From the NCBI GenBank assembly GCA_964354215.1, contig CAYGYT010000001.1, positions 75,199-139,198 on the forward strand: a stretch of 64,000 nt of DNA. Direction: 5' to 3'. Origin of the DNA: an uncultured Eubacteriales bacterium. Its GTDB lineage: Bacteria > Actinomycetota > Coriobacteriia > Anaerosomatales > CAVRZR01. Positions within the stretch are counted from its first letter, which is position 1. Each line of letters begins with the position of its first letter. Both the position numbers and the translations under genes were made by a program. Under the pieces are notes generated by a model. That model was not told where the DNA came from. It saw only the letters and a program-made list of their open reading frames with translations, and made no database searches. Shown piece by piece: positions 19,610 to 59,472 of this stretch.

Positions 19610-19753
19610 TACCGCCGCCCGTACAGAGCGGCTGGTCGGAACGTGCTGAGCAGGGCCCTGCATGGAGCACCCGAACTGGGTATACATTCCTGTGATTGTT
19701 CTGCACGCCGCAAGTGCTGGCACCTGCGGGACACAAGGGGGAGGGGAGCTGTC

Positions 19754-21058
19754 ATGAAGATCGAGGTCCGAGTCGTCTCGTGGCGAAGGGCTACCGTTGC
19801 CATTCTCGTGCTCTGTCTGCTCACGGGAGTCGCGTGGGTCTCGCTTCCGGCGCACGCTCAGTCTGGCTCGAGGCAGGTGTCTGCTGCGCTCTCACCCTAT
19901 GTCTGGGACGAAGCGTGGTTCGGCGACCGCTACATCAACTACCTCCACACCCCCAAGGGCGTCGCTGTCGATAGTGCGGGCAGAGTCTACGGCTCCAGCG
20001 TAGGGAACAACCGGATCGTGCGGTACGGCGTCGATGGAAGCCGTGAGCTCAGCTGGGGGCAGCGCGGTTCGGCGCTCGGGCAACTCCTGTACCCGCGCGA
20101 CGTTGCGGTCGATGGCGAGGGGAACGTCTACGTCGCCGATACCGCCAACGACCGCGTACAGAAGTACAGCCCCACAGGGAAGCCCATTCTCGTATTCGGC
20201 GCGACCGGCCGCGGTCTCGGAGAGCTCTTGGGGCCTCAGGGTGTTGCCATCGGGCTTCTCGGCGCGGTGTACGTCTCGGACTGGAGCAACGATCGCATCC
20301 AGGTTTACTCGGCGAGCGGCGCGTACGGGTTTCCCATCGGCGGGACCGGAAGCGCGCCGGGTCAGCTCGACGGGCCGAGCGGGCTTGGAACGGACTCTGC
20401 CGGCAACGTGTACGTGGCCGACTACTTCAACCACCGCGTCCAGGTCTTCGCGCCCGGCGGAGAACTCGTGAGGGTGATCGGCAAGAAGGGCACCGCGCTG
20501 GGCGAATTCAACGGCCCGGTGGACGTCGCTGTGGGTCTGGACGGCAGCATGTTCGTGGCCGATAGCGGGAACCGAAGGGTGCAGCGGCTTACCATTCAGG
20601 GGGTCTGGTCCGAGTTCGGACCACAGACAAGCCCCGCGGGCTACGACGACACCAACGTCGCCAGCGTCGCCGTGGATCGTGCGGGCAACGTCTACGTGGC
20701 CAACACGAACGACGACCGGATCGACCGGTTCACGCCGCGGGGCGCCAAGGTGGTCCTGACGAAACCCGTCCTGCTGACGAAGTACCCCCGTGCGGGACGC
20801 TCGTTCGAGGTGAGCGCATCGTCTCGGCCGGTGCACCACTCGATGCGCGATCGTGTCTACTGGGAGTTGAGAAAGACGGGCTCGACGCGCGTCACCATCG
20901 TCAAGCCGACCCGGAACTACCCCGGACGCCGCTGGGTCTACTACAAGAAGTCGTTCAAGCTCCCTGCGGGTTCATACTCGATACGCGCGGTGTCCCCCGC
21001 GGACAGCGAGCACGCGAAGACGACGAGCGCGTATCTCTACTTCACTCTGCGACGCTAG
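19754..21058 (+). CDS. secreted NHL-repeat (six-bladed beta-propeller) protein carrying the shared C-terminal module
   Basis: Trimmed to the ATG at 19754 (RBS GGGGGAGGGGA). Signal peptide ...VAILVLCLLTGVAWVSLPAHAQ. Repeated P.GVAVD..GNVYVAD..N.RV.. units. Confidence 0.85.
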   Translation: MKIEVRVVSWRRATVAILVLCLLTGVAWVSLPAHAQSGSRQVSAALSPYVWDEAWFGDRYINYLHTPKGVAVDSAGRVYGSSVGNNRIVRYGVDGSRELSWGQRGSALGQLLYPRDVAVDGEGNVYVADTANDRVQKYSPTGKPILVFGATGRGLGELLGPQGVAIGLLGAVYVSDWSNDRIQVYSASGAYGFPIGGTGSAPGQLDGPSGLGTDSAGNVYVADYFNHRVQVFAPGGELVRVIGKKGTALGEFNGPVDVAVGLDGSMFVADSGNRRVQRLTIQGVWSEFGPQTSPAGYDDTNVASVAVDRAGNVYVANTNDDRIDRFTPRGAKVVLTKPVLLTKYPRAGRSFEVSASSRPVHHSMRDRVYWELRKTGSTRVTIVKPTRNYPGRRWVYYKKSFKLPAGSYSIRAVSPADSEHAKTTSAYLYFTLRR

Positions 21059-35400: not shown

Positions 35401-38374
35401 GTGCGAGAGGAGCGGCGATCAACGCACGAACGGGAATTGGGATTGTCGCGACGGCGAGTAGGGCGACAGACGCGAGCGACGAAGGCCACATCCGATGCAC
35501 GAAACCGGCGCGTGTCGAACCCAGTCGCCGCGCCGCATCATCGGCGGTTTCCCACTCGAGCAGGTGTTTGCGCGAGACGAACGTGCGCCACATTGCGCGT
35601 GCGATCGCGTCCGCCGCTACCCACGAGCGGTAGGGCAGCACACTCAGCTCGAACAGCGAACGTGAGAGGTCTCGGCCGGTATCGCGCGCTATCGCGCGTA
35701 CCGACGAGCCGAGGTGGACCGAGCGCGGGCGCATGAGGATCGCGTCCACGAAGCCGAACACGACTGGGAAGAGCACGAAGAGCGTGGCGAAGAGTGGCCA
35801 CACGAGCGCGGGCGACCCGAGCGCGAGCCAGCCGAGGGTTGCCAGCAGCACGCTTGTCGGCGCGACGAGGCTCCGGCGTAGATTGTCGATGATCTTCCAG
35901 CGGTGCAGAGACGTAAGCGGGTTCGCCGTGAGCCGCCCCTGCGCGTCGCGTGCGCTCAGGAACAGCCACGGGACGGTCTGCCAGTCACCGCGTATCCAGC
36001 GGTGCACGCGCGAGAGATCGGCCGCGAAGCTCGCCGGGTAGTCGTCGAGCACCTCCACGTCCGTTGCGAGCGCAGTCCTCAGAAACGAGCCCTCGATCAA
36101 GTCGTGGGAGAGCATCGAGTCTTCAGGGAATCGCTCTTCGAGCACGCCGAGGAAGACGGCGAGTTCGAAGATGCCCTTCCCCGTGAAACTGCCCTCCCCG
36201 AACACGTCCTGGTAGGTATCAGAAGCAGCGCCGACGTACGGGTCCAAGCCAGTGGCTCCCGAGTACATCCAGGCGAAGCGGCTCTTGCGCGAGCCGGGCA
36301 GCGTCATGCTCACGCGCGGCTGGACGAGCCCGTAGCCGCCCTCCACGCGCAGCTCCCCGTGACGCCACTGAGCCCGGTTCATGGGGTGTGCGATCGTCGA
36401 GACGAGCTTGCGAGCGGCATCTCTCGGCAACTGCGTGTCTGCATCCAGCGTGACCACGAACGTGACGTCTCGCCGAAAACCGATCTCGCCCATCTTGTGC
36501 GTGAACGCGGAGCCGTCCTCGCCGTGAAGTGCTCGCGCAAGCTCGAGGAGCGCGCCTCGTTTGCGTTCCCAGCCCATCCAGAGGCCCTCGGACTCGTTGT
36601 AGGTGCGACCCCGGATGAACAGGTGGAACGGCCGTACGCCGTGCTCGACCTCGTAGCGGTCGTTGAGCTGGCTCACAGCGCGCACGGCCGCCTCGACGAT
36701 TTCGCCGTCGTCGGGACGCTCTGGCTCCGGCGCCCCCCGCAAGTCGCCGAGGAGCGCGTACGCGATGTTGGGATCGCGGTTGGCGAGGTATGAGATCTCA
36801 AGGTTGTCGACGACCGCCTGCGTCGAGGGCACCGAGGACAGCAGCGCCGGAACGACCACAAGCGTGCGGTTCGACTCCGCGACCGGGTGTGTGAAGTCCA
36901 GCTTGAGGAGCGAACGGGGCGGGTAGATGCCGGCGAGCGTACGGTTCGTGACCGTGAGCGCTACCTCGGAAAGCGGGAAGATCGCCAGAAGTGCGACGAT
37001 CGTCGTACCGAGAGCGGGGCCTCCCGTGAGCGCGACCCACCAGGTAGCGAGTCCGACGAGGAGTGCCGTCAGGCCGCCGAGCAGCGTCCCGTAGATCAGG
37101 CCGCGGTGGCGCAGAGGCCCGCGGTATGCCCATTCGCGCCGGGTGCGGCGATAACCGACGGTAGGCTCGAGCTCGTAGCGACCCGCGCTCACCAGGTAGT
37201 ACGCAACGTGTCCTCGGACGAGATCGCTCGGGTCACGTGCGAGTGCATCGCTCGCGAATCCGAGGACCGCCTCGACGAGTTCGGTCTCAGTGAATGAGCA
37301 GCGCCTCGCCATCTGCTCGATCGCGTGCCGGCATCGGTCCCGGCTCGCGAAGTCCATCCGCGGGTACACGCCGGCGGGATCCTCGCAAAGCGCCTGCTCG
37401 ACCACGCTCACCGTCTCGAAGAACGCCTTCCACTCGAAGGCGTCGAAGAACCGGATGGTCGTGATCGAGTTGGCGATTGACACCTGGTTGGCGGCTTGTT
37501 CCTGTTGCTGAGCGTGTACGTGTTCCTCGAGCACGATGCCGAGCGAGGATACCCTGCCTTGCAGCCAGGCATTTACGGGCTCGCCGCCGGCTTCCATGCC
37601 TCCGAGGCGCTGGGACAGGCGTCCGAAGAACGGTGGGGTCTGATCGACGGACGCCGTCTCGAGCTCCTGTATCAGGCCTGGCAGCTCCTCCGGAGCGTTC
37701 TGAACGGTAAGTAGGACGCGCTCTGCCCACTCGTCCGCGGAAAGCTCGGCCTCGTGCGACAGGACTACGCGGCGCGACAGCCGCCGCAGGTTCTCGACGA
37801 CCGCGATCCTGAGCATGATCGGGACGGCCCATAACTCGCCGATGGAGAGAGGAGAGACATCCTGGTACGCCTCGACGAAGCGCAGGAGGTAGGGCTCGTC
37901 GACGCGCGCGTCGGTGTGGACAAGCAGCTCAACCGCAGCCTCGAACACCCGTGGGTACCCTGCGTAGGGGCCGCTTGTCAGCCGGGGCAACTCGATTCCG
38001 TAGCGCGCCGGCAGATCTTCGCGCACGGCGAGGAGCTGCTCCTCGATCAGGTAGTAGTTGTCGAGCAGCCACTCGCTTGCCGGTGAGAGCGAGAGCTGCG
38101 CGCGTGTAGCCGCCGAGAGAACGATGTTGTCGTGTGCAAGACCCGCAGCGGCAGCGTCAGCGAGTGCGATGAGCGGTGTGGTGCGGATAGGTGGCTGCGT
38201 GACCGGTTCTTGGAGCGAGGCGAGCGCGCGCGCCTCGTCCGCCAGCCGGTCTGCGTTGAGCAGGTCGCCGCGGAAGGGAGCGTCATCTGTCATGACCTGG
38301 GGCGGCTCGACGGTCGCTCGCGGTCTGCGCTGCTCGGTTTCCCCCACCCGTTCCTCCAGTCGCGCACCGGGCAT
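29477..38374 (-). CDS. cyclic beta-1,2-glucan synthase-like giant multidomain protein (GT84 glycosyltransferase + (alpha/alpha)6 glucan-processing/cyclization-like region + GH94 phosphorylase-like C-terminus)
   Basis: Single uninterrupted frame. N-terminal ...FRGDLLNADRLADEARALA as in NdvB/ChvB-type proteins. TM segments. GT84-type motifs MGWERKRG and VTLDADTQLPRDAA. Central motifs SPTNVGLQLLA, STVDSGNLAGHL, WSASMFEYLMP and YQAFGVPGLGLKRG. GH94-type motifs RDQLQD, HWWQPHSGRGVRT, EGGDWNDGMN and GGQYTHAAVW. Start uncertain: ATG at 38374 or 38293. The track's extension to 38854 runs into the divergent gene and lower-GC DNA. Confidence 0.88.
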   Translation of the reverse strand: MPGARLEERVGETEQRRPRATVEPPQVMTDDAPFRGDLLNADRLADEARALASLQEPVTQPPIRTTPLIALADAAAAGLAHDNIVLSAATRAQLSLSPASEWLLDNYYLIEEQLLAVREDLPARYGIELPRLTSGPYAGYPRVFEAAVELLVHTDARVDEPYLLRFVEAYQDVSPLSIGELWAVPIMLRIAVVENLRRLSRRVVLSHEAELSADEWAERVLLTVQNAPEELPGLIQELETASVDQTPPFFGRLSQRLGGMEAGGEPVNAWLQGRVSSLGIVLEEHVHAQQQEQAANQVSIANSITTIRFFDAFEWKAFFETVSVVEQALCEDPAGVYPRMDFASRDRCRHAIEQMARRCSFTETELVEAVLGFASDALARDPSDLVRGHVAYYLVSAGRYELEPTVGYRRTRREWAYRGPLRHRGLIYGTLLGGLTALLVGLATWWVALTGGPALGTTIVALLAIFPLSEVALTVTNRTLAGIYPPRSLLKLDFTHPVAESNRTLVVVPALLSSVPSTQAVVDNLEISYLANRDPNIAYALLGDLRGAPEPERPDDGEIVEAAVRAVSQLNDRYEVEHGVRPFHLFIRGRTYNESEGLWMGWERKRGALLELARALHGEDGSAFTHKMGEIGFRRDVTFVVTLDADTQLPRDAARKLVSTIAHPMNRAQWRHGELRVEGGYGLVQPRVSMTLPGSRKSRFAWMYSGATGLDPYVGAASDTYQDVFGEGSFTGKGIFELAVFLGVLEERFPEDSMLSHDLIEGSFLRTALATDVEVLDDYPASFAADLSRVHRWIRGDWQTVPWLFLSARDAQGRLTANPLTSLHRWKIIDNLRRSLVAPTSVLLATLGWLALGSPALVWPLFATLFVLFPVVFGFVDAILMRPRSVHLGSSVRAIARDTGRDLSRSLFELSVLPYRSWVAADAIARAMWRTFVSRKHLLEWETADDAARRLGSTRAGFVHRMWPSSLASVALLAVATIPIPVRALIAAPLALAWALAPLIAWRISQPIKVREPVPLTGPQHQLLRRIARKTWRYFDTFVTDEGHYLVPDNFQEDPQGEVAWRTSPTNVGLQLLAYLNAYDLGYVTIDGLVERVSSTLSSMAGLERFHGHFYNWYDIQSLEPLRPNYISTVDSGNLAGHLLVLRVGLLEASEAPLLDRQLVAGLRDAVRLALEDVVVERASLNSLPQQPLMDVLDDLERELELQEPPQTLGEWNGLLLRLSGMADRLAHAVEPVELGFSATSAERPFHQSVYAPDDTVDLDLPSTARARVVSSVRTVIDDVGSIRGVIDALTPWAGLLSEMPPALSAHPRLAALEPLTRFVPSLVGIAEGLGEVLEALELIAHESWSAEDADTQAAREWADAVAAGIRSARPQCVELLSRLRIDTDIARQMWEHTDFTVLFDEHRSLFSIGFNTAEGHLDGSYYDMLASECRLASFLAIAKGDAPQEHWFRLGRLITQTGTGRALVSWSASMFEYLMPLLVMRSWDGTLLDETYGTVVRRQIQYGKDRGVPWGVSESAFNAKDADLTYQYQAFGVPGLGLKRGLSEDVVVAPYASLLALPVDAQSVLDNLGAITRQGGEGRWGFYEAIDYTPGRIPAGETRAVVKAYFAHHQGMSFVALGNELTGEKMRHRFRADPLVVSAELLLQERVPRHVQLTSPHVEEVRFVRSLRELPPPVARSYPTADTPVPSTHFLSNGRYSVMVTNGGGGYSRFENVAITRYREDVTRDCWGTFFYIRDTESGHVFSATHQPCPTPADNYFVTFAPDKAEYRRTDGNLETRVEVAVSPEDDVEVRRLTITNHGREGRTLEVTSYLEIAFTSQASDQAHKSFSNLFVETEVLDDLNALLFTRRPRSSSEARLWGLHALACENELCEWSFETDRASFLGRLRGVADPLAVSRGGELGRGVGAVLDPSCSLRRTVKVGPGESARLVFTTGAAEDRETATQLVEKYRDARSAQRAIDLAWTATQLELRDLGITPDEAVTLERLASRLLLTDPNSRLKVKTPVENGLQMSGLWSIGISGDNPILLVRVEELEHAPLVRQAILAHQYWRHKGLVSDLVILNTRPTGYADELDDRLRLLVRTGHALQLVDKPGGIYLRRADQMHPDVLNLLLSVARATLDGDGGSIELQLSRRAARPAVPGELVPTRSAEPWPTSPFQRPALTLDNGFGGFDTATGDYVIVLEGDETTPAPWVNVMATAEFGCLVSEAGVGCTWALNSHENRITTWNNDAVSDGSGEALYIRDEETGEFWSPTPLPVRDEEPYVIRHGKGVTRFEHASHGLSQEIDWFVAVDAPVRIVRLRLTNTGARERHLSVTQFVEWVLGDSRSRAQQLVVTWFDAESTILTAHNHFNLDFPGRSAFLACDAELHSYTASRTEFVGRNGRPGDPAAMYRKGLGAQSGRFLDNCGALMTKVDIAPGESAEVSFLLGQTATLEESRDAVARLRQHGAIDKALADARAFWTDLLGSVQVQSPDAALDIMVNGNALYQALACRIWGRTGTYQSSGAFGFRDQLQDVLALLLVRPDLVREQIVEASRHQFEAGDVLHWWQPHSGRGVRTHISDDRHWLPLVVAEYVTATGDTSVLDERTAYIEGPELPPEQEDLYLQPAVSEQAATVFEHCMVALGRFGIGSHGLPLMEGGDWNDGMNRVGHEGRGESVWLGWFLAYVASRFASVCDLIGETARAQHYRAWSAGLAQAVELEGWDGGWYRRAYFDDGTPLGSHTSEECRIDAIAQSWAVISGFGNPERTRAAIDAVEEKLVRREAGLVALLTPPFDRMSHDPGYIKGYVPGVRENGGQYTHAAVWLILAYLLKGDGDEAVSLFDLVNPISHALTAEAAARYVVEPYVIAADVYAAEPHVGRGGWTWYTGSAAWFYRVALNHLYGLRIEARDGTRFLVMDPCIPKDWPAYEITYRSGATRYHIRVENPRGVNRGVARVELDGVVLAEPVVPLSEEPGAHQVIVTLLGG

Positions 38375-38615
38375 GTCTCCGGCGCGTGCTCTCGCGGCTG
38401 CGTCGTGCGCGTTGGTTGGCGCCTTGCTACTTCCAAGGACAGGCACCGGTAGCGCATCTATAGTATCCCCCGAGCGTGCGTCGGCAGGAGAGCGAGTTTG
38501 CACGAGAAATACCCATGGGGGTATCATCGCGTAGGTGCACACGCGTTGTCGCACGCATGCGGCGTACATCGAGTACCTCGGACCGAGATCGCTTTGGCCC
38601 CGTGAGGAGTGTTTG

Positions 38616-39332
38616 ATGAAGAGCAAATGGATCGTGTGGGTGGCCGTGGCGGCCGTTCTCGTGGGCGTCGCGTATCTCGCGCTGAAACCCGCCTCGGTAG
38701 CCCAGGGCGTCGTGGACGTCGACAGCGGCAAGCTCGAAGAGCTGCTCGCGGCGTCCCCCTCGCCGAGGATCGTTGACGTCCGTACTCCCGGGGAGTTCCA
38801 GGCGGGGCACCTCAAGGACGCCGAGAACGTACCCGTCGACCAGGTCGAGTCCATTGCGCAGTCGTGGGACCGGTCTCAGCCGCTCGTCGTCTACTGCGCC
38901 ACTGGTGCACGGTCGGCGACGGCGGTTCAACAGTTGCAGAGCATGGGGTTCAAGACCATCTACCACTTCTCGCAGGGCCTCGTCGCCTGGCAGGGTGCGC
39001 TCGATACGGGTGATGAGGGGCCGGTCGCGCAGGCACCCGCCGTCAAGACCAACAGCAAGCCGGTGATGTATGAGTTCTTCACCGACTGGTGACCAAGCTG
39101 CAAGGAGATGAAGCCTGTGGTCGACAGGCTAGAGAAGGCGTACGAGGGCAAGGTGGAGTTCCGGCGGATCAACGTCGACACCGACAAGCAGGGCGCCGCA
39201 CTGATGCAGCAGTTCAATGCGCAGTACGTGCCGACGTTCGTGTTCATCAACGCCGACGGGTCGACGGCTGACCTAAAGGTGGGAGCGCTCAAGAAGGATC
39301 AGCTCGTGGCAGCGCTCGACAGACTCAAGTAG
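38616..39332 (+). CDS. membrane-anchored or secreted rhodanese-thioredoxin fusion, predicted selenoprotein (in-frame TGA at 39090-39092 read as Sec, giving W-U-P-S-C)
   Basis: ATG at 38616 with GAGGAG 7 nt upstream. N-terminal TM WIVWVAVAAVLVGVAYLAL. Rhodanese domain with active-site loop CATGARS. ORFs 38535..39092 and 39108..39332 are in the same frame. The read-through product aligns with the thioredoxin fold on both sides of the TGA (cis-Pro YVPTFVF, KVGALKKDQL). Confidence 0.7.
39112..39130 (+). promoter_or_regulatory. candidate bacterial SECIS hairpin for the TGA at 39090
   Basis: AGCCUGU-GGUCG-ACAGGCU: 7-bp stem and 5-nt G/U-containing loop. The loop starts 26 nt after the UGA. Confidence 0.5.
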
Positions 39333-39870
39333 GTGTCTGCAGCAGGTAAGCCGAGGTTGTCGTTTTGCAAAGATTGTTGGCGCGTTTCGCCCTCGGATGG
39401 GGTATACCTGTGATAGGTCGCCCGAACGTTGGGCGAGAAGTCCATCGGCCGCAAAGGAGTGGATGGGTACAGGTGAGAGACACCGACATAACCCAGACTC
39501 GACCGGGATGGCAGATGAAGGCCTTCGGCAGGCGGTACGGGTAACGGAAAACGGTTCGTACGTCACTGGTTCGTCGGTTCGAGAAGTTCGGACGAGGTGC
39601 CTGAAGGGGCACCTGCAACGGCAAGGATCGTAGAGCCGCCGAAGAGCTGGGCATAAGCCCTTGGAGCACTGGGGATGCGGACGGGAGCGGGAAGCTCGCC
39701 GGACAAGAGTCCCCAAGGATAGCCTTTTGGAGGGGTGCCTCGGGCGGTGCGAAGGCCATCCCGGTGTTCTTCTCTCAGATGCTGCGATAACCAGCAGCGT
39801 GAGAATGTCGAGTCGCACGGGCAGCAACGGAAGGGCGGACCCGAGAGGGCCCGCCCTTCTTGCTTCTCTT
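39333..39870 (+). ncRNA. candidate large structured RNA or structured 3' UTR, class unknown
   Basis: About 540 nt with no credible ORF on either strand and lower GC than neighbouring DNA. Many local hairpins, including AGGUGCC-UGAAGG-GGCACCU, UCGCCC-GAACGUU-GGGCGA and GGUG-AGAGA-CACC. An 11-bp perfect long-range complement joins 39502..39512 (ACCGGGAUGGC) and 39755..39765 (GCCAUCCCGGU). Ends in a plus-strand terminator. Strand assignment is tentative. Confidence 0.35.
39830..39870 (+). terminator. intrinsic terminator (may also serve glnK on the minus strand)
   Basis: GAAGGGCGGACCC-GAGA-GGGCCCGCCCTTC: 12 of 13 positions paired, GNRA loop, followed on the plus strand by TTGCTTCTCTT. Confidence 0.6.
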
Positions 39871-39888
39871 GGATCGACGCGGCAGCGG

Positions 39889-42136: not shown

Positions 42137-43891
42137 TCAGCCTCGCTGCTCGAGCAGTTCGCACATGGCGTGAAGAGCGCTGCCCATGCCGAGCGGGGCC
42201 CACTCGGCAAACGACGCTGAGCGCTCGAGGACCTGTTCGGCCGTTGCCGACATGCCGGACGCTCTCACACCGTGCGCCGCGAGACTCAACGCAGCGAGGG
42301 CGGCAAGATGCGGGCCGCTGGGGGTTGGGCCGTCGTGCCGCTCCCGCGGCCTGAGAGGAAGCTCGGTGGATGCTGGTGTCATGAACCACACCCCGTCAGA
42401 GGCGAAGGTCGCCTCTGCGGCGGCCAGGATGCGCTCTGCTGCACCGAGGAACTCTCGCTCGTCAGCTGTCTCGAACGCGCGGACTGCCGCGAGGGCCAAG
42501 GCAGCCGCGTCGTCGAGAACCTGCGGGGCCGGTTGATGCGTGTCGCCCACGATCCGCCGCACCTGGCCGTCGGCGCCCGCCGCCTCAGCCAGAAGGAACC
42601 GCACGAGCTCTACGCCCCGCTTTGTGATTGCGTCATCGCCGACGGCGGCGCCGGCGTCCATCAGGCCGATGGCGGCAAGCGCGTTCCAGGACACGATCAC
42701 CTTGCCGTCGCGGTCGGGCTGGGGCCGCCGCTGCCGCCGTGAGAAGAGCCGGGACAACAGCGCGTTCACGCGTGGGTCGTCGTCCAGATTCTCTCGCGTC
42801 AGGATGACGCTCCCCTCCCAGTTGCCTTCGCGCGATACGCCGAGATGCTCGCGAGCGAGGGCGAGTTCCTCGGCATCGAGCAGCGACTCGAGCTCCTCCC
42901 AGCCCCAGACGTAGGTCGCGCCCTCTTCCCCTTGCGTGTCGGCCGAGAGCGACGAGGCGTAGCCGCCGGATGGCATGAGCAGATCGCGCTCGAGGAATGC
43001 CGCGGTGTCGCCCATGGCGCGTCGCCACGCATCACGCGGTCGTCGGATGTGCAGCCCTGCGAGGGTCGAGAGCAGCTGCGCGTTGTCGTAGAGCATCTTC
43101 TCGAAGTGCGGCACGAGCCACCGGTCGTCGACGGAGTAGCGCGCGATGCCGCCGCCCGCCTGGTCGTAGATGCCACCGCCGACGATGCCGACTGCCTCCG
43201 CCTCGACCAGCGCGAGAGCCCGTTCGTCGCCGGTGATTCGGTGGTACGCGAGCAGGAACTGGGCGACCGTCGGTTGCGGGAACTTGGGCGCACTGCCGAA
43301 GCCGCCGTTGACCGGGTCTGCCTCGTCCAGCACCGCCGAGAAGGCCAGATCCACAACTCCACGTGTGGCGGCCCCGGGTTTCGGTGGGGCGAACATCACT
43401 CGGAGGTAGTCCATGGCGTCTTCGGCAGAACGCGCGACCACGTCGGGCTGGAGCGAGAACGAGGTGCTGATGCGCTCGAGGATGCTTTGAAACGACGGCA
43501 CTCCAGGGTGCGATTCGGGCGGGAAGTACGTGCCGCCGAAGACCGGTCGAAGCTCGGGGGTAAGAATGACGCTCATCGGCCAGCCTCCGTGTCCGGTGGC
43601 CGCGACTACGTACGCCAGGTAGAGCTCGTCGACGTCGGGCCGCACCTCGCGGTCGACCTTCACCGAAACGTAGCGGTCGTTGAGAAGGCCCGCGGTCGCC
43701 GGATCGCGGAACGACTCGCGCTGCATGACATGGCACCAGTGGCACGACGCGTAGCCGACGGAGAGGAAGATCGGGCGCTCGGTCTCGCGCGCGTGCGCGA
43801 AGGCCTCTTCGCCCCACGGATACCAATCGACCGGATCGTCCGCGTGCTGGCGGAGATACGGAGAGGATGCACGTGCGAGGCGATTCGGCAT
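42137..43891 (-). CDS. thioredoxin-domain (DUF255, YyaL-like) protein with C-terminal (alpha/alpha)6-barrel-like region
   Basis: Trimmed to the ATG at 43891 (MPNRLARASSPYLRQHADDPVDWYPWGEEAF...). Motif VGYASCHWCHVM is typical of DUF255. Confidence 0.85.
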   Translation of the reverse strand: MPNRLARASSPYLRQHADDPVDWYPWGEEAFAHARETERPIFLSVGYASCHWCHVMQRESFRDPATAGLLNDRYVSVKVDREVRPDVDELYLAYVVAATGHGGWPMSVILTPELRPVFGGTYFPPESHPGVPSFQSILERISTSFSLQPDVVARSAEDAMDYLRVMFAPPKPGAATRGVVDLAFSAVLDEADPVNGGFGSAPKFPQPTVAQFLLAYHRITGDERALALVEAEAVGIVGGGIYDQAGGGIARYSVDDRWLVPHFEKMLYDNAQLLSTLAGLHIRRPRDAWRRAMGDTAAFLERDLLMPSGGYASSLSADTQGEEGATYVWGWEELESLLDAEELALAREHLGVSREGNWEGSVILTRENLDDDPRVNALLSRLFSRRQRRPQPDRDGKVIVSWNALAAIGLMDAGAAVGDDAITKRGVELVRFLLAEAAGADGQVRRIVGDTHQPAPQVLDDAAALALAAVRAFETADEREFLGAAERILAAAEATFASDGVWFMTPASTELPLRPRERHDGPTPSGPHLAALAALSLAAHGVRASGMSATAEQVLERSASFAEWAPLGMGSALHAMCELLEQRG

Positions 43892-44054
43892 GGTGGCTCC
43901 TGCCTGGGTGGTCGCGCCAACAGGGCGTTTGCCTGGTTCTTTCCCCGCAGGCAGGCGGTTGTGGCGCCCGGGAGACTGCGTCCGCGGGCAGGTCGTCACC
44001 TCGCTCGCGGACTCGCCGAGAACGGCACGACGGATGCTATACTCTCCCGCGCAC

Positions 44055-57289: not shown

Positions 57290-58048
57290 CTAGTCGGTGG
57301 ACGGCTTGTCGAGTTCGCCGCTGTTGCTGTAGCCGCGTTGCTCCCAGTACCCCTTGAACGACGTGTCGTTCGACACCTCGATCTCCTTGACCCACTTGAT
57401 CCACTTGTAGCCCCAGCGGTCTTCGGCGACGAGCTGGAAGGGGTAGCCGCGCTCGGGAGGCAGAACGACGCCGTTCATCTTCGACGCGAGGAGGATGTCC
57501 TGTGCGCGCACGTACGCCAGAGGGAGGGACGTCGAGTACCCGTCTACCGCGCGGAAGATGACGACCTTCGCGTCCGCGGCTGCGCCCGCCTGTTCGAGCA
57601 GGTCGACCACGCGCACGCCTTGCCACCAGATGTCGACGCTCCAGCCCTCGACGCAGTTCAATCGCACGACCTTGTCGTAGTTCTGGCGGGCCAGCACTTG
57701 GTCGTAGGTGAGTTTCAGCGGCGTCTGCACGCGCCCGCTGACCTCGAGCCGGTAGGCCTTCGGGTCCACTGACTGCGGCCCCTTGATCGAGTTCTCGGAG
57801 AAGTCCTCTATCGACGAAAGCTTGGCGCCCTGATACTGCCGGACCTCACTCGGATAGAGTCGCTTCGACGGGGTTTGGTCTCTCGGCCCCGTGCCGGTGT
57901 CGTCTACTGCGGAGCAGGCCGCGAGTGCTGCCAGCCCGACCGCGAGCGCGATCGCGCACAGCAGCCGGAGAGCCGTCCGAGTCCGGTCGACCACGGAGTG
58001 CTGCGCGGCCTCGTCACGCTCAAACTGGGGCTGCGGCATCGTTGGCAT
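57290..58048 (-). CDS. molybdopterin-dependent oxidoreductase (sulfite-oxidase/YedY-MsrP fold), predicted lipoprotein
   Basis: Trimmed to the ATG at 58048 (TGATG overlap with the upstream gene). Lipobox LAALAAC. Motifs RLNCVEGWS, ...LASKMNGVVLPPERGYPFQLV...WGYKWIKWVKEIEV. Confidence 0.85.
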   Translation of the reverse strand: MPTMPQPQFERDEAAQHSVVDRTRTALRLLCAIALAVGLAALAACSAVDDTGTGPRDQTPSKRLYPSEVRQYQGAKLSSIEDFSENSIKGPQSVDPKAYRLEVSGRVQTPLKLTYDQVLARQNYDKVVRLNCVEGWSVDIWWQGVRVVDLLEQAGAAADAKVVIFRAVDGYSTSLPLAYVRAQDILLASKMNGVVLPPERGYPFQLVAEDRWGYKWIKWVKEIEVSNDTSFKGYWEQRGYSNSGELDKPSTD

Positions 58049-59472
58049 CAGCGCTCCTCGATCTCGATTGGTGCCAGCGAGCCGTCGACGCCCACTCGCA
58101 CGATGCGATGGTTCCCCGTATCGGCGATGACCAGACCGCCTGATGTCGAAGCCGACACTCCTCCCGGCTCGCGAAGCTCGCCGTCGCGCCCCGCCGCCCC
58201 AGGCCACGGCTCGCACGTGCGCGTGGCCGGGTCGATGCGCTTGATGCGGTCGTTGTACGTGTCGGCGACGGCGAGGAAACCGTCGTGCCAGGCAACGTCC
58301 TGGCAGTGCTGGAGCAGGACCTGGTCGGCAACGCCATCGCGATCGCCGAAGTCGAAGAGCCCGGTGCCGACGATGGTGCGCAACGCGTCGTCCGCGTCGA
58401 CGCGGCGAACCGCTGAGGACTCGCAGTCCGTGAAGACGACGCCTCCCGCCGACGCGCACAGGCCGGTCGGCTGCGCGAGCGCGGCTCCGCGGGCGGGCCC
58501 GTCGAGGACCGCTTCGCCACCGGAACCGGCCACGAGTTCCAGAACGCCCGTGTCAAGCGAGATCGAGAAGAGCTGGTGGGAGCCGGCCATAGAGAGCAGG
58601 AGCCGCGTCCCGTCGAGCAGCAGGCCCCACGGGGATCGGATCGGCGTGGCCGCAGCGAGTGAGCCCGGACGGATGGAGTCGTGCGCAATGGCTCCGGTCC
58701 CCGCGACACGCTCTCGCGCGCCGGAAGCCGTGTCGAGACGCCATACCGCGTGACCCGCGCGGTCCGCGACCCAGACGGCGCCTCCCGTCGAGTCGACCGC
58801 AACGCCCTGCGGCTCCAGGAATCCCGTCCACTCGCGCCGCACCCGACCGGACAGCCCGCTCTCACCGAGCTCGATCTCGACGAGTCGCCCGTGACCGGCG
58901 TCCGCGACGTACAGCCGCCCCTCGGATTCGATGACACGCGAGGGATACCTCAGAAGCCCGCCCTCGGGCTTCTCGACGCGAAGGAACGGCTCGTCTCCCC
59001 TCACGAGCGTGCCGCGCCTCTCGGCTTCGGCAGTGACGCGCTCGATAATCTCCGCCACGGCCTCGGTGTCGAACTCGCCCGACTGGATCCCGATGAGATA
59101 GCCTTCCGGGTCGATCAGCGCGATCGTCGGCCACGCCTCGACGGCGTAGCTCTTCCAGATCCGGAACTGCCGGTCGTTCACGATCGCGTGGGTGACGCCC
59201 AGCCGGTCGGCCGCCGAGGCGATCCGCTCGGTTCGGCGTTCGGTCGAGAACTTCCCGGCGTGCACTCCAACAACGCTGAGCACGTCTGAGAACCGTTCGT
59301 GCAGCTCCCGGACACGCGGGAGCACGTGCATGCAGTTGATTCAACCGTACGTCCAGAAGTCGAGCAGGGTCACGCGTCCGCCGAGGGCACGCATGTCGAG
59401 CGGGGCGGCTGTGTTGACCCAGTCGAGGCCGGGCGGGAAGTCGGGCGCATGGACGTTTCGCATCGATTCCAT
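58048..59472 (-). CDS. thioredoxin-like (redoxin) domain + NHL-repeat protein, predicted selenoprotein (in-frame TGA at 59343-59341 read as Sec, giving G-U-I-N-C)
   Basis: The tail of minus ORF 59341..60351 (MESMRNVHAPDFPPGLDWVNTAAPLDMRALGGRVTLLDFWTYG) is in frame with ORF 58048..59331 (INC-MHVLPRVRELHERF...AWPTIALIDPEG...). Together they rebuild one redoxin fold with TGA at the first CxxC position. ATG at 59472 with GGAG 8 nt upstream. NHL repeats fill the C-terminal two-thirds. Confidence 0.7.
59304..59323 (-). promoter_or_regulatory. candidate bacterial SECIS hairpin for the TGA at 59343-59341
   Basis: GCUCCCG-CGUGUC-CGGGAGC: perfect 7-bp stem with a 6-nt G/U-containing loop. The loop starts 24 nt after the UGA. 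Confidence 0.5.

Follow-up and report, generated by a model that had tools for sequence, protein, structure and literature searches.

A conserved rhodanese-thioredoxin fusion gene of uncultured Actinomycetota with an in-frame UGA probably read as selenocysteine

The window analyzed here, a stretch of 64,000 nucleotides (64 kb) from contig CAYGYT010000001.1 of an uncultured bacterium of the Actinomycetota (assembly GCA_964354215.1), harbors on its forward strand a candidate selenoprotein gene in which a rhodanese is fused to a thioredoxin (Trx). Translation of the region 38616..39335 (+) gave a frame that is open except for a single TGA at 39090-39092, comprising 238 codons followed by the stop codon TAG at 39333-39335. 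The open reading frame (ORF) list divides this gene in two, with ORF 1 ending at 39092 and ORF 2 starting from the ATG at 39108 in the identical frame; the read-through of 38616..39332 as one frame, on which the original prediction was built, was thereby confirmed. The read-through product runs MKSKW...EFFTDW up to the TGA (39090-39092) and continues with PSCKEMKPVVDRLEK...DRLK, giving the local reading F-F-T-D-W-[UGA]-P-S-C-K. Based on the frame, the domains and the comparative DNA, we annotate 38616..39335 (+) as a single coding sequence in which the in-frame UGA would specify selenocysteine (Sec) 159. A Shine-Dalgarno-like GAGGAG, read directly from the sequence, is located 6 nt 5' of the ATG at 38604..38609 (+).

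The predicted protein begins with MKSK, after which residues 5-23 (38628..38684, +) form a hydrophobic segment. Because positive residues precede a stretch of about 19 hydrophobic residues, and the relatives lack an AxA cleavage motif, the N-terminus suggests an uncleaved signal anchor of N-in/C-out topology, which would place both domains outside the cytoplasm. The rhodanese domain covers residues 41-127 (38736..38996, +; Pfam PF00581, 66.5 bits against a gathering cut-off of 22.2, E 3e-18), and its catalytic residue Cys94 (codon 38895..38897, +) lies in the loop C-A-T-G-A-R-S. This cysteine, within the motif Y-C-x-T/x-G-x-R-S, was invariant among the relatives and the cysteine-containing homologues (Cys forms) in alignments A1 and A6. 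The thioredoxin-fold domain was recognized at residues 142-235 (39039..39320, +) by Pfam PF00085 (62.2 bits against a gathering cut-off of 23.5, E 5e-17; profile positions 13-102 of 103), and the match therefore spans the TGA at residue 159. PF13098 also matched the window protein, at 53.9 bits. The UGA (39090..39092, +) would be the first residue of U-P-S-C, with the codon of the resolving Cys162 at 39099..39101 (+), and the Pro206 codon (39231..39233, +; V-P-T-F), invariant in A1 and A6, occupies the conserved cis-proline position of the thioredoxin fold, its cis state being deduced from that fold. The transmembrane or signal segment, the rhodanese with its CATGARS loop and the placement of the TGA on the first Cys of a thioredoxin CxxC, all proposed from the sequence in the original prediction, were thus recovered by profile and alignment.

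Structural context was provided by an AlphaFold2 model of the Cys homologue P0011, not of the window protein itself, with a mean predicted local distance difference test score of 90.8 and a predicted template modelling score of 0.55. In this model, residues 3-25 are helical, an alpha/beta rhodanese follows at about 33-125, and a disordered linker (133-139) leads to a thioredoxin fold at 150-237, in which CPSC stands at the start of helix 160-175 (helix 1), after strand 150-155 (strand 1). The best matches of the modelled thioredoxin domain in the Protein Data Bank (PDB) were classical TrxA-type thioredoxins (root-mean-square deviation 1.4-2 Å, 29-38% identity), and the modelled rhodanese domain matched 3tp9; no solved chain found by the PDB fold search spans both the rhodanese and the thioredoxin domain.

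The search with the read-through protein retrieved 185 relatives, and almost all of the best 120 were 150-160 residues long, covering 66% of the query. These short relatives end at one shared aligned residue (...EFFTDW, ...EFYTDS, ...EFATST), and the C-terminal part, when used as query, matched solely 74-residue fragments starting at an internal Met. Three full-length relatives (P0011, P0027 and P0029, 231-244 residues) read W/V-C-P-S-C at the position of the UGA. DNA was obtained for 14 places and for 80 more from metagenomes, and the comparison set consisted of 95 loci. The codon at the position of Sec159 was TGA in 94 of the 95 and TGC in the remaining one, and in all 95 loci P-x-C follows, with a downstream tail of 79-80 codons that stays in frame. 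Averaged over sequence pairs, the differences at codon positions 1/2/3 were 0.36/0.30/0.49 after the UGA and 0.28/0.28/0.40 before it, so that both sides of the UGA carry, as judged from these substitution patterns, the signature of translated sequence under purifying selection.

An exhaustive search with P0011 extended the full-length forms by at least 20 further clusters (at 50% identity) of proteins of 230-270 residues that match from end to end. When the Cys-form clusters were aligned with the window protein, C94, W158, C159, C162, P167 and P206 were invariant, and C159 was present in all 23 Cys forms; the UGA coincides with this invariant catalytic Cys. Orthologues thus carry either Cys or TGA at this position, the outcome that had been left to be checked when the read-through was first proposed. 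TGA also serves as an ordinary stop in 10 of the 31 annotated genes of the window, and there is therefore no global reassignment of the code. Only two in-frame TGAs with a two-sided coding signal and a redox motif were found in the whole window, and a scan of the related loci for further candidates gave only antisense-frame noise.

Downstream of the UGA, the hairpin AGCCUGU/GGUCG/ACAGGCU occupies 39112..39130 (+), with a 7-bp stem (39112-39118/39124-39130) and the loop GGUCG (39119-39123) beginning 26 nt after the UGA; on the protein level the same nucleotides encode K-P-V-V-D-R-L. The published criteria for a bacterial selenocysteine insertion sequence (SECIS) call for 3-9 nt in the loop and 4-16 bp in the stem, with a G in the first two loop positions, a UGA-loop distance of 16-37 nt and a minimum free energy of at most -7.5 kcal/mol (PMC13188914). 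The hairpin agrees with all of them (5-nt loop, 7-bp stem, GG, 26 nt, -11.5 kcal/mol), and its proposed position and spacing were confirmed. The 60 nt from the UGA onward aligned without gaps across 82 distinct sequences, in which 99.5% of the 574 cells of the stem held standard pairs, compared with 23-53% when the 3' partner was slid by 1-3 columns. The observed pairing or covariation score was reached by 0 of 500 shuffles, a statistic inflated by the relatedness of the sequences. One of the two search patterns by which loci were collected was the peptide MKP[VL]V[DE][RGA]L[EK], which fixes amino acids and not the pairing.

Two pairs of the stem show compensatory changes in the TGA-carrying orthologues, in which conservation of the hairpin had been named as a check. 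At pair 27-37, 44 sequences have U-A and 38 have C-G, and pair 28-36 is G-C in 45, C-G in 33, U-A in 3 and U-G in 1, with zero mismatches in either. All four combinations are present (K-P-V-V-D-R-L, V-V-D-G, L-V-E-G and L-V-E-R) with the stem kept in each, and the switches were therefore independent events. Column 27, which is the synonymous third position of a Pro codon, has U exactly where the partner codon is AGG (Arg) and C where it is GGG (Gly). Accordingly distributed are the codons of the stem: Pro is written CCU in 44 sequences, CCC in 38 and CCG in none, against 9%, 32% and 49% in the genes of the window, all 44 Arg codons are AGG (7% in genome usage) and all 37 Gly codons are GGG (18%). 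Across the aligned sequences, the loop GGUCG was nearly invariant. In the Cys form L119, the stem has a C-C mismatch, the loop reads GGUUG and the folding energy is -5.9 kcal/mol. Taken as a whole, the hairpin presents an RNA structure that prevails over codon usage and directs the choice of amino acids.

The second of the two in-frame TGAs belongs to another candidate selenoprotein, composed of Thioredoxin_8 and NHL repeats and located at 59469..58048 (-), with its TGA at 59343-59341 and a hairpin at about 59323-59304. It reads MESMRNVHAPDF...LLDFWTYG-U-INCMHVLP..., and the hairpin GCUCCCG/CGUGUC/CGGGAGC lies 20 nt downstream of the TGA. Distant homologues read FWTYGCINC, with Cys at the TGA position, and close orthologues are annotated only from a Met after the TGA. 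These close orthologues are on the same two large contigs as the rhodanese-thioredoxin gene, and the relative L120, on one of the two, has conserved the TGA together with the hairpin and the N-terminal frame of 43 codons. It would be difficult to account for the intact maintenance of two independent U-x-x-C genes in the same genomes if Sec were not decoded there. Two other proteins of the window, a DUF255/Thioredox_DsbH protein of 620 residues (42137-43999, -) and a separate NHL-repeat protein of 471 residues (19643-21058, +), showed no in-frame TGA.

Several observations weigh against the reading of the locus as a selenoprotein gene. No selA, selB, selD or tRNA-Sec was detected in the window by ARAGORN, Rfam and Pfam, the rest of the source genome being unsearched, and the only tRNAs of the window are tRNA-Ile and tRNA-Ala; likewise, about 1 Mb of related loci yielded no tRNA-Sec with ARAGORN and no SelD-like sequence in tblastn with E. 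coli SelD. The Cys form L032 retains an intact hairpin, so that, of the two Cys forms for which DNA was available, only one shows loss of the hairpin. Taken alone, the window sequence has a folding energy that was not significant in comparison with shuffles (z = -1.8 for 41 nt and +0.4 for 61 nt), and the support for the hairpin therefore comes from comparison and not from thermodynamics. Part of the pairing signal, in turn, reflects shared ancestry, since related sequences were compared and the codons in which the stem is embedded are conserved. The GGUC loop is at +30..+33, farther from the UGA than that of E. coli fdhF, which lies at about +22..+25, and still within the published 16-37 nt. 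No Rfam family matched at the hairpin, even at E <= 1.

Three other accounts of the split frame were considered along with these points. The gene calls in all public records divide the locus into a 158-residue anchored rhodanese ending at the TGA and a 74-residue thioredoxin-like peptide starting at ATG 39108, and this division is favored in the window by the ATG standing 15 nt past the TGA with an AGGAG before it. Relatives consistently encoded as two genes, with a real start after the TGA, had been named in the original prediction as the pattern that would overturn it, and the relatives show otherwise. In the 82 distinct sequences, Pro160 and Cys162 are always encoded between the TGA and the internal ATG, with one synonymous TGC-to-TGT change, which is unexpected in an untranslated spacer, and the ATG itself is replaced by CTG or TTG in about ten sequences (e.g., L036, L085, L088 and L089). 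The AGGAG directly abuts the ATG and is unconserved (AAAGCG, GTGACG and CAGAAG in relatives), the 74-residue piece would lack strand 1 and the active site of the fold, and the Cys forms are contiguous single polypeptides. Because the Pro and Cys codons are invariant before an ATG that is itself unconserved, the two-gene account is largely refuted by the sequence comparison, and we regard it as exceedingly improbable. It could also be supposed that a near-cognate tRNA (Trp or Cys) reads through the UGA, aided by the UGA-C context and the downstream hairpin. UGA-C is a weak termination context, the UGA is followed by C in all sequences, and the lack of Sec machinery in the window and the related loci would agree with such a mechanism. 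Yet the UGA takes the precise place of the nucleophilic Cys in a redox motif, where Sec is classically found; the hairpin has SelB-binding features (GGUC-type loop, spacing, stem length), with a nearly invariant loop for which a generic roadblock would have no use; the same genome has a second U-x-x-C gene, with a hairpin of its own and a G/U-containing loop; and the TGA has been kept in 94 of 95 loci though TGC is one mutation away. We therefore consider near-cognate read-through very improbable.

A different possibility is that the gene is a relic in the source genome, whose Sec machinery would have been lost and whose sole product would be the truncated rhodanese. In favor of this, no Sec machinery was found in the window, and bacteria often lose the Sec trait according to the accessible part of one study (PMC1794560). 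Against decay, the window copy has a perfect frame, a perfect hairpin and a G+C content of 0.90 at third codon positions after the UGA. A copy of 99% identity recovered from another sample (L025, L039) is intact to the same degree, and the second Sec candidate of the window is intact as well; a relic is very improbable on these grounds. With a probability of about 0.87, the comparative sequence evidence points to a real selenoprotein gene with one 238-residue product containing Sec159. Under this reading, SelB and Sec-tRNA(Sec), recruited by the in-frame hairpin at 39112-39130, would read the UGA at 39090-39092 as Sec, and one gene would yield a protein anchored in the membrane by its N-terminus and composed of a rhodanese (Cys94) and a thioredoxin-fold domain with U159-P-S-C162, in which selenocysteine 159 would be the nucleophilic active-site residue. 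The original concept of an anchored or exported sulfurtransferase fused to a Sec-containing thioredoxin is accordingly supported by the two domains, their intact catalytic residues and the conserved TGA. The gene is conserved, widespread and mis-annotated in uncultured Actinomycetota; the named records of the family come from metagenome-assembled genomes of uncultured Actinomycetota and Coriobacteriia. A scan of genome contigs with the 158-residue N-terminal part gave only distant rhodaneses among the matches listed.

Among catalogued selenoproteins, the thioredoxin family (PF00085, UxxC; representative WP_010956703.1) is listed as experimentally verified (PMC13188914). It shares with the window protein the thioredoxin fold, Sec in place of the N-terminal Cys of CxxC and an in-frame SECIS hairpin after the UGA. 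That family is defined by the thioredoxin domain alone, whereas the window protein adds a membrane anchor and an N-terminal rhodanese and has the motif W-U-P-[STAV]-C. The NCBIfam equivalog model of TrxA (TIGR01068) was not reached (64.1 bits, cut-off 96.8), and the window protein has a thioredoxin-fold domain without being a TrxA orthologue. A Trx-like UxxC selenoprotein is likewise known for PF13098, described as a thiol:disulfide interchange protein (PMC13188914); it is described without a rhodanese domain and is set apart from the window protein by that description only.

By domain content, the closest catalogued relative is TsoB (NF045694), which likewise combines a rhodanese and a C-terminal Trx-like domain in one selenoprotein; it is listed as a rhodanese/DsbD fusion-like protein ("rhodanese form 5") with two Sec residues in UxxxxU (table in PMC13188914). 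Both domains of the window protein match this model in two stretches, the thioredoxin part at positions 471-566 of 572, with 59.6 bits against a cut-off of 805. The TsoB model spans 572 positions and represents a DsbD fusion, whereas the window protein has 238 residues, a single UxxC Sec and the N-terminal anchor as its sole hydrophobic segment; TsoB membership was rejected on score, length and the single UxxC motif. The rhodanese-type selenoproteins of forms 1-4 have Sec within the rhodanese domain, in UxxS, UxxG or CxU motifs (PMC13188914), and were rejected as well, since the rhodanese of the window has Cys and its UGA lies in the thioredoxin domain (NF041203, 41.6 against 115 bits). The model rhoda_near_glyco (NF045521) was rejected at 51.7 bits against a cut-off of 145, and no NCBIfam release 20 model reached its curated cut-off on the window protein.

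The same architecture does occur with Cys. The Cys-form exported rhodanese-thioredoxin fusions (P0011, P0027, P0029; P0282, P0312, P0328; and at least 17 more clusters) are 230-270 residues long and share with the window protein the invariant rhodanese Cys, W-C-x-P-C and the cis-Pro position. They differ from it in having Cys for Sec, and the distant ones are 24-35% identical and have, in the alignment, signal or lipoprotein-like N-termini. The fusion had been thought unfamiliar when it was first noticed; this did not hold for the exported rhodanese-thioredoxin architecture as such, which is not rare given the at least 20 Cys-form clusters, and it held for the Sec form, which is uncatalogued. 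A rhodanese-thioredoxin selenoprotein was absent from the accessible parts of reviews and of the Global Ocean Sampling fusion survey, and from the searchable part of the 119-family catalogue of May 2026. The Sec-form fusion is hence best described as a new architecture or subfamily of the known thioredoxin-fold UxxC selenoproteins and not as a categorically new one.

Separate rhodaneses and thioredoxins are known as partners, as in the E. coli rhodanese GlpE, which is partnered with thioredoxin. Plant sulfurtransferases also interact with thioredoxins, according to the accessible part of one report (PMC4618214). In such pairs, a dithiol thioredoxin receives sulfane sulfur from a one-Cys, single-domain rhodanese, or reduces that rhodanese; they are mostly cytoplasmic Cys proteins, whereas the pair in the window is fused, probably extracytoplasmic and predicted to use Sec. 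Since rhodaneses are Cys persulfide carriers and interact with thioredoxins, we tentatively propose, by analogy and with somewhat less than even confidence, a relay or reduction of sulfane sulfur from the rhodanese Cys to the selenolate/thiol pair, with a Se-S bond that is re-reduced by a donor. In this scheme, Cys94 would acquire sulfane sulfur from thiosulfate, polysulfide or persulfides, and the selenolate of Sec159 would attack Cys94-SSH, with sulfide being released or the sulfur handed on. A Se-S bond between Sec159 and Cys162 would then form and be re-reduced by a putative membrane electron donor. A point that counts against this function is that no partner gene of the CcdA/DsbD type was found nearby.

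The divergent intergenic region upstream of the gene offers candidates for its regulation. A promoter-like site at 38436..38464 (+), proposed from its consensus match only, has the -35 element AGGACA, a 17-nt spacer and the -10 element TATAGT; one such site was found against 0.1 expected in shuffles. Between this site and the gene, at 38509..38524, lies the 16-bp palindrome ATACCCATGGGGGTAT (ATACC-N6-GGTAT), a candidate operator of the CsoR/CstR family. Of the 68 related loci with enough flank, 54 have it 14-107 nt before the start codon, and it is single-copy in the window, with no second copy in any related locus (543 kb). The operators to which we compared it are that of Streptomyces lividans CsoR, ATATACCCCTNAGGGGTATAT (PMC3902906), and the cst operator of Streptococcus mitis, ATACCCTTATGGGGTAT, to which the persulfide sensor CstR binds; rhodaneses belong to the CstR regulons (PMC8643695). 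Like these, the palindrome of the window has the form of a G/C-tract pseudopalindrome ATACC...GGTAT located 5' of a sulfurtransferase gene. Its form TAC-N8-GTA is 1 bp shorter than the TAC-N9-GTA of the characterized CsoR/CstR operators, and no CsoR-like ORF was found by a regular-expression search of the window and the related loci; both points speak against this assignment. The candidate operator is possibly a site of control by a CsoR/CstR-type repressor, in which case persulfide or copper stress would induce the gene.

Downstream, a conserved structured RNA of about 130 nt or more lies 3' of the rhodanese-thioredoxin gene at 39636-39766 (+), together with a short conserved block at 39492-39527. 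About 500 nt of non-coding sequence, including this RNA, separate the stop codon from a terminator-like hairpin with a T-rich tail (39830..39872, +), which would possibly mark the 3' end of the transcript. The nucleotide identity of the structured RNA was 73-95% in more than 40 loci, compared with just 45-50% identity of the neighboring protein. Of the 20 pairs predicted by RNAalifold, 14 show compensatory changes, and the G-U pairs favor the + strand; no Rfam 15 family matched 39636-39766. The RNA is also found beside the Cys form L032 and is absent in L033-L038. It may be a 3' untranslated region element or a small RNA. A wider proposal, which we consider doubtful, would join these features into a new family, in which an outward-facing Se-dependent persulfide/polysulfide reductase or relay is combined with a variant 16-bp operator of the CsoR/CstR type and with a co-transcribed, hitherto undescribed structured RNA (39636-39766) acting in its expression.

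In the majority of loci, a giant GH94/glycoamylase gene is oriented divergently to the rhodanese-thioredoxin gene, and the latter is often followed by convergent genes for P-II and an ammonium transporter; P0011 and P0027 have the neighborhood of the window gene. The giant protein of the window (29477..about 38293/38374, -; about 2,940-2,965 residues) contains GH94, glycoamylase and GH94 beta-supersandwich domains, and resembles cyclic beta-1,2-glucan synthase. Its probable start is at 38293 or 38374, and the mechanical ORF over-extends to 38854, overlapping the rhodanese gene. A functional pairing with the giant gene was entertained and set aside, being inseparable from conserved gene order among relatives, and the neighborhood of L036-L038 differs. 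In that lineage, a 68-residue YgaP-like transmembrane protein (PF11127) is encoded directly upstream, and genes for TusA, DsrE, a cysteine desulfurase and NifU are located nearby, at about 100-8,600 nt upstream; this sulfur-trafficking neighborhood fits the proposed function.

Two general features of the window were also recorded. The stop codons of its 31 annotated genes are TAG in 20, TGA in 10 and TAA in 1, at a G+C content of 66%; TGA stops normally dominate in genomes of 66% G+C, and such TAG-rich usage is unusual. At its start (384-2963, +), the window contains gyrA, a gene frequently found close to the origin of chromosome replication.

The present observations bear on the annotation of public sequences, in which more than 150 protein clusters are halves of one probable selenoprotein, recorded as "rhodanese-like" proteins of about 150 residues (e.g., GenBank PKQ16833.1) and as 74-residue "thioredoxins"; with a model made for this family, annotation pipelines could recognize the gene correctly. 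They would also extend the use of Sec to a probably extracytoplasmic sulfur chemistry in uncultured Actinomycetota of anoxic habitats. The fusion would hard-wire the rhodanese-thioredoxin partnership, and its natural Sec and Cys versions suit the question of what benefit selenium brings to persulfide chemistry.

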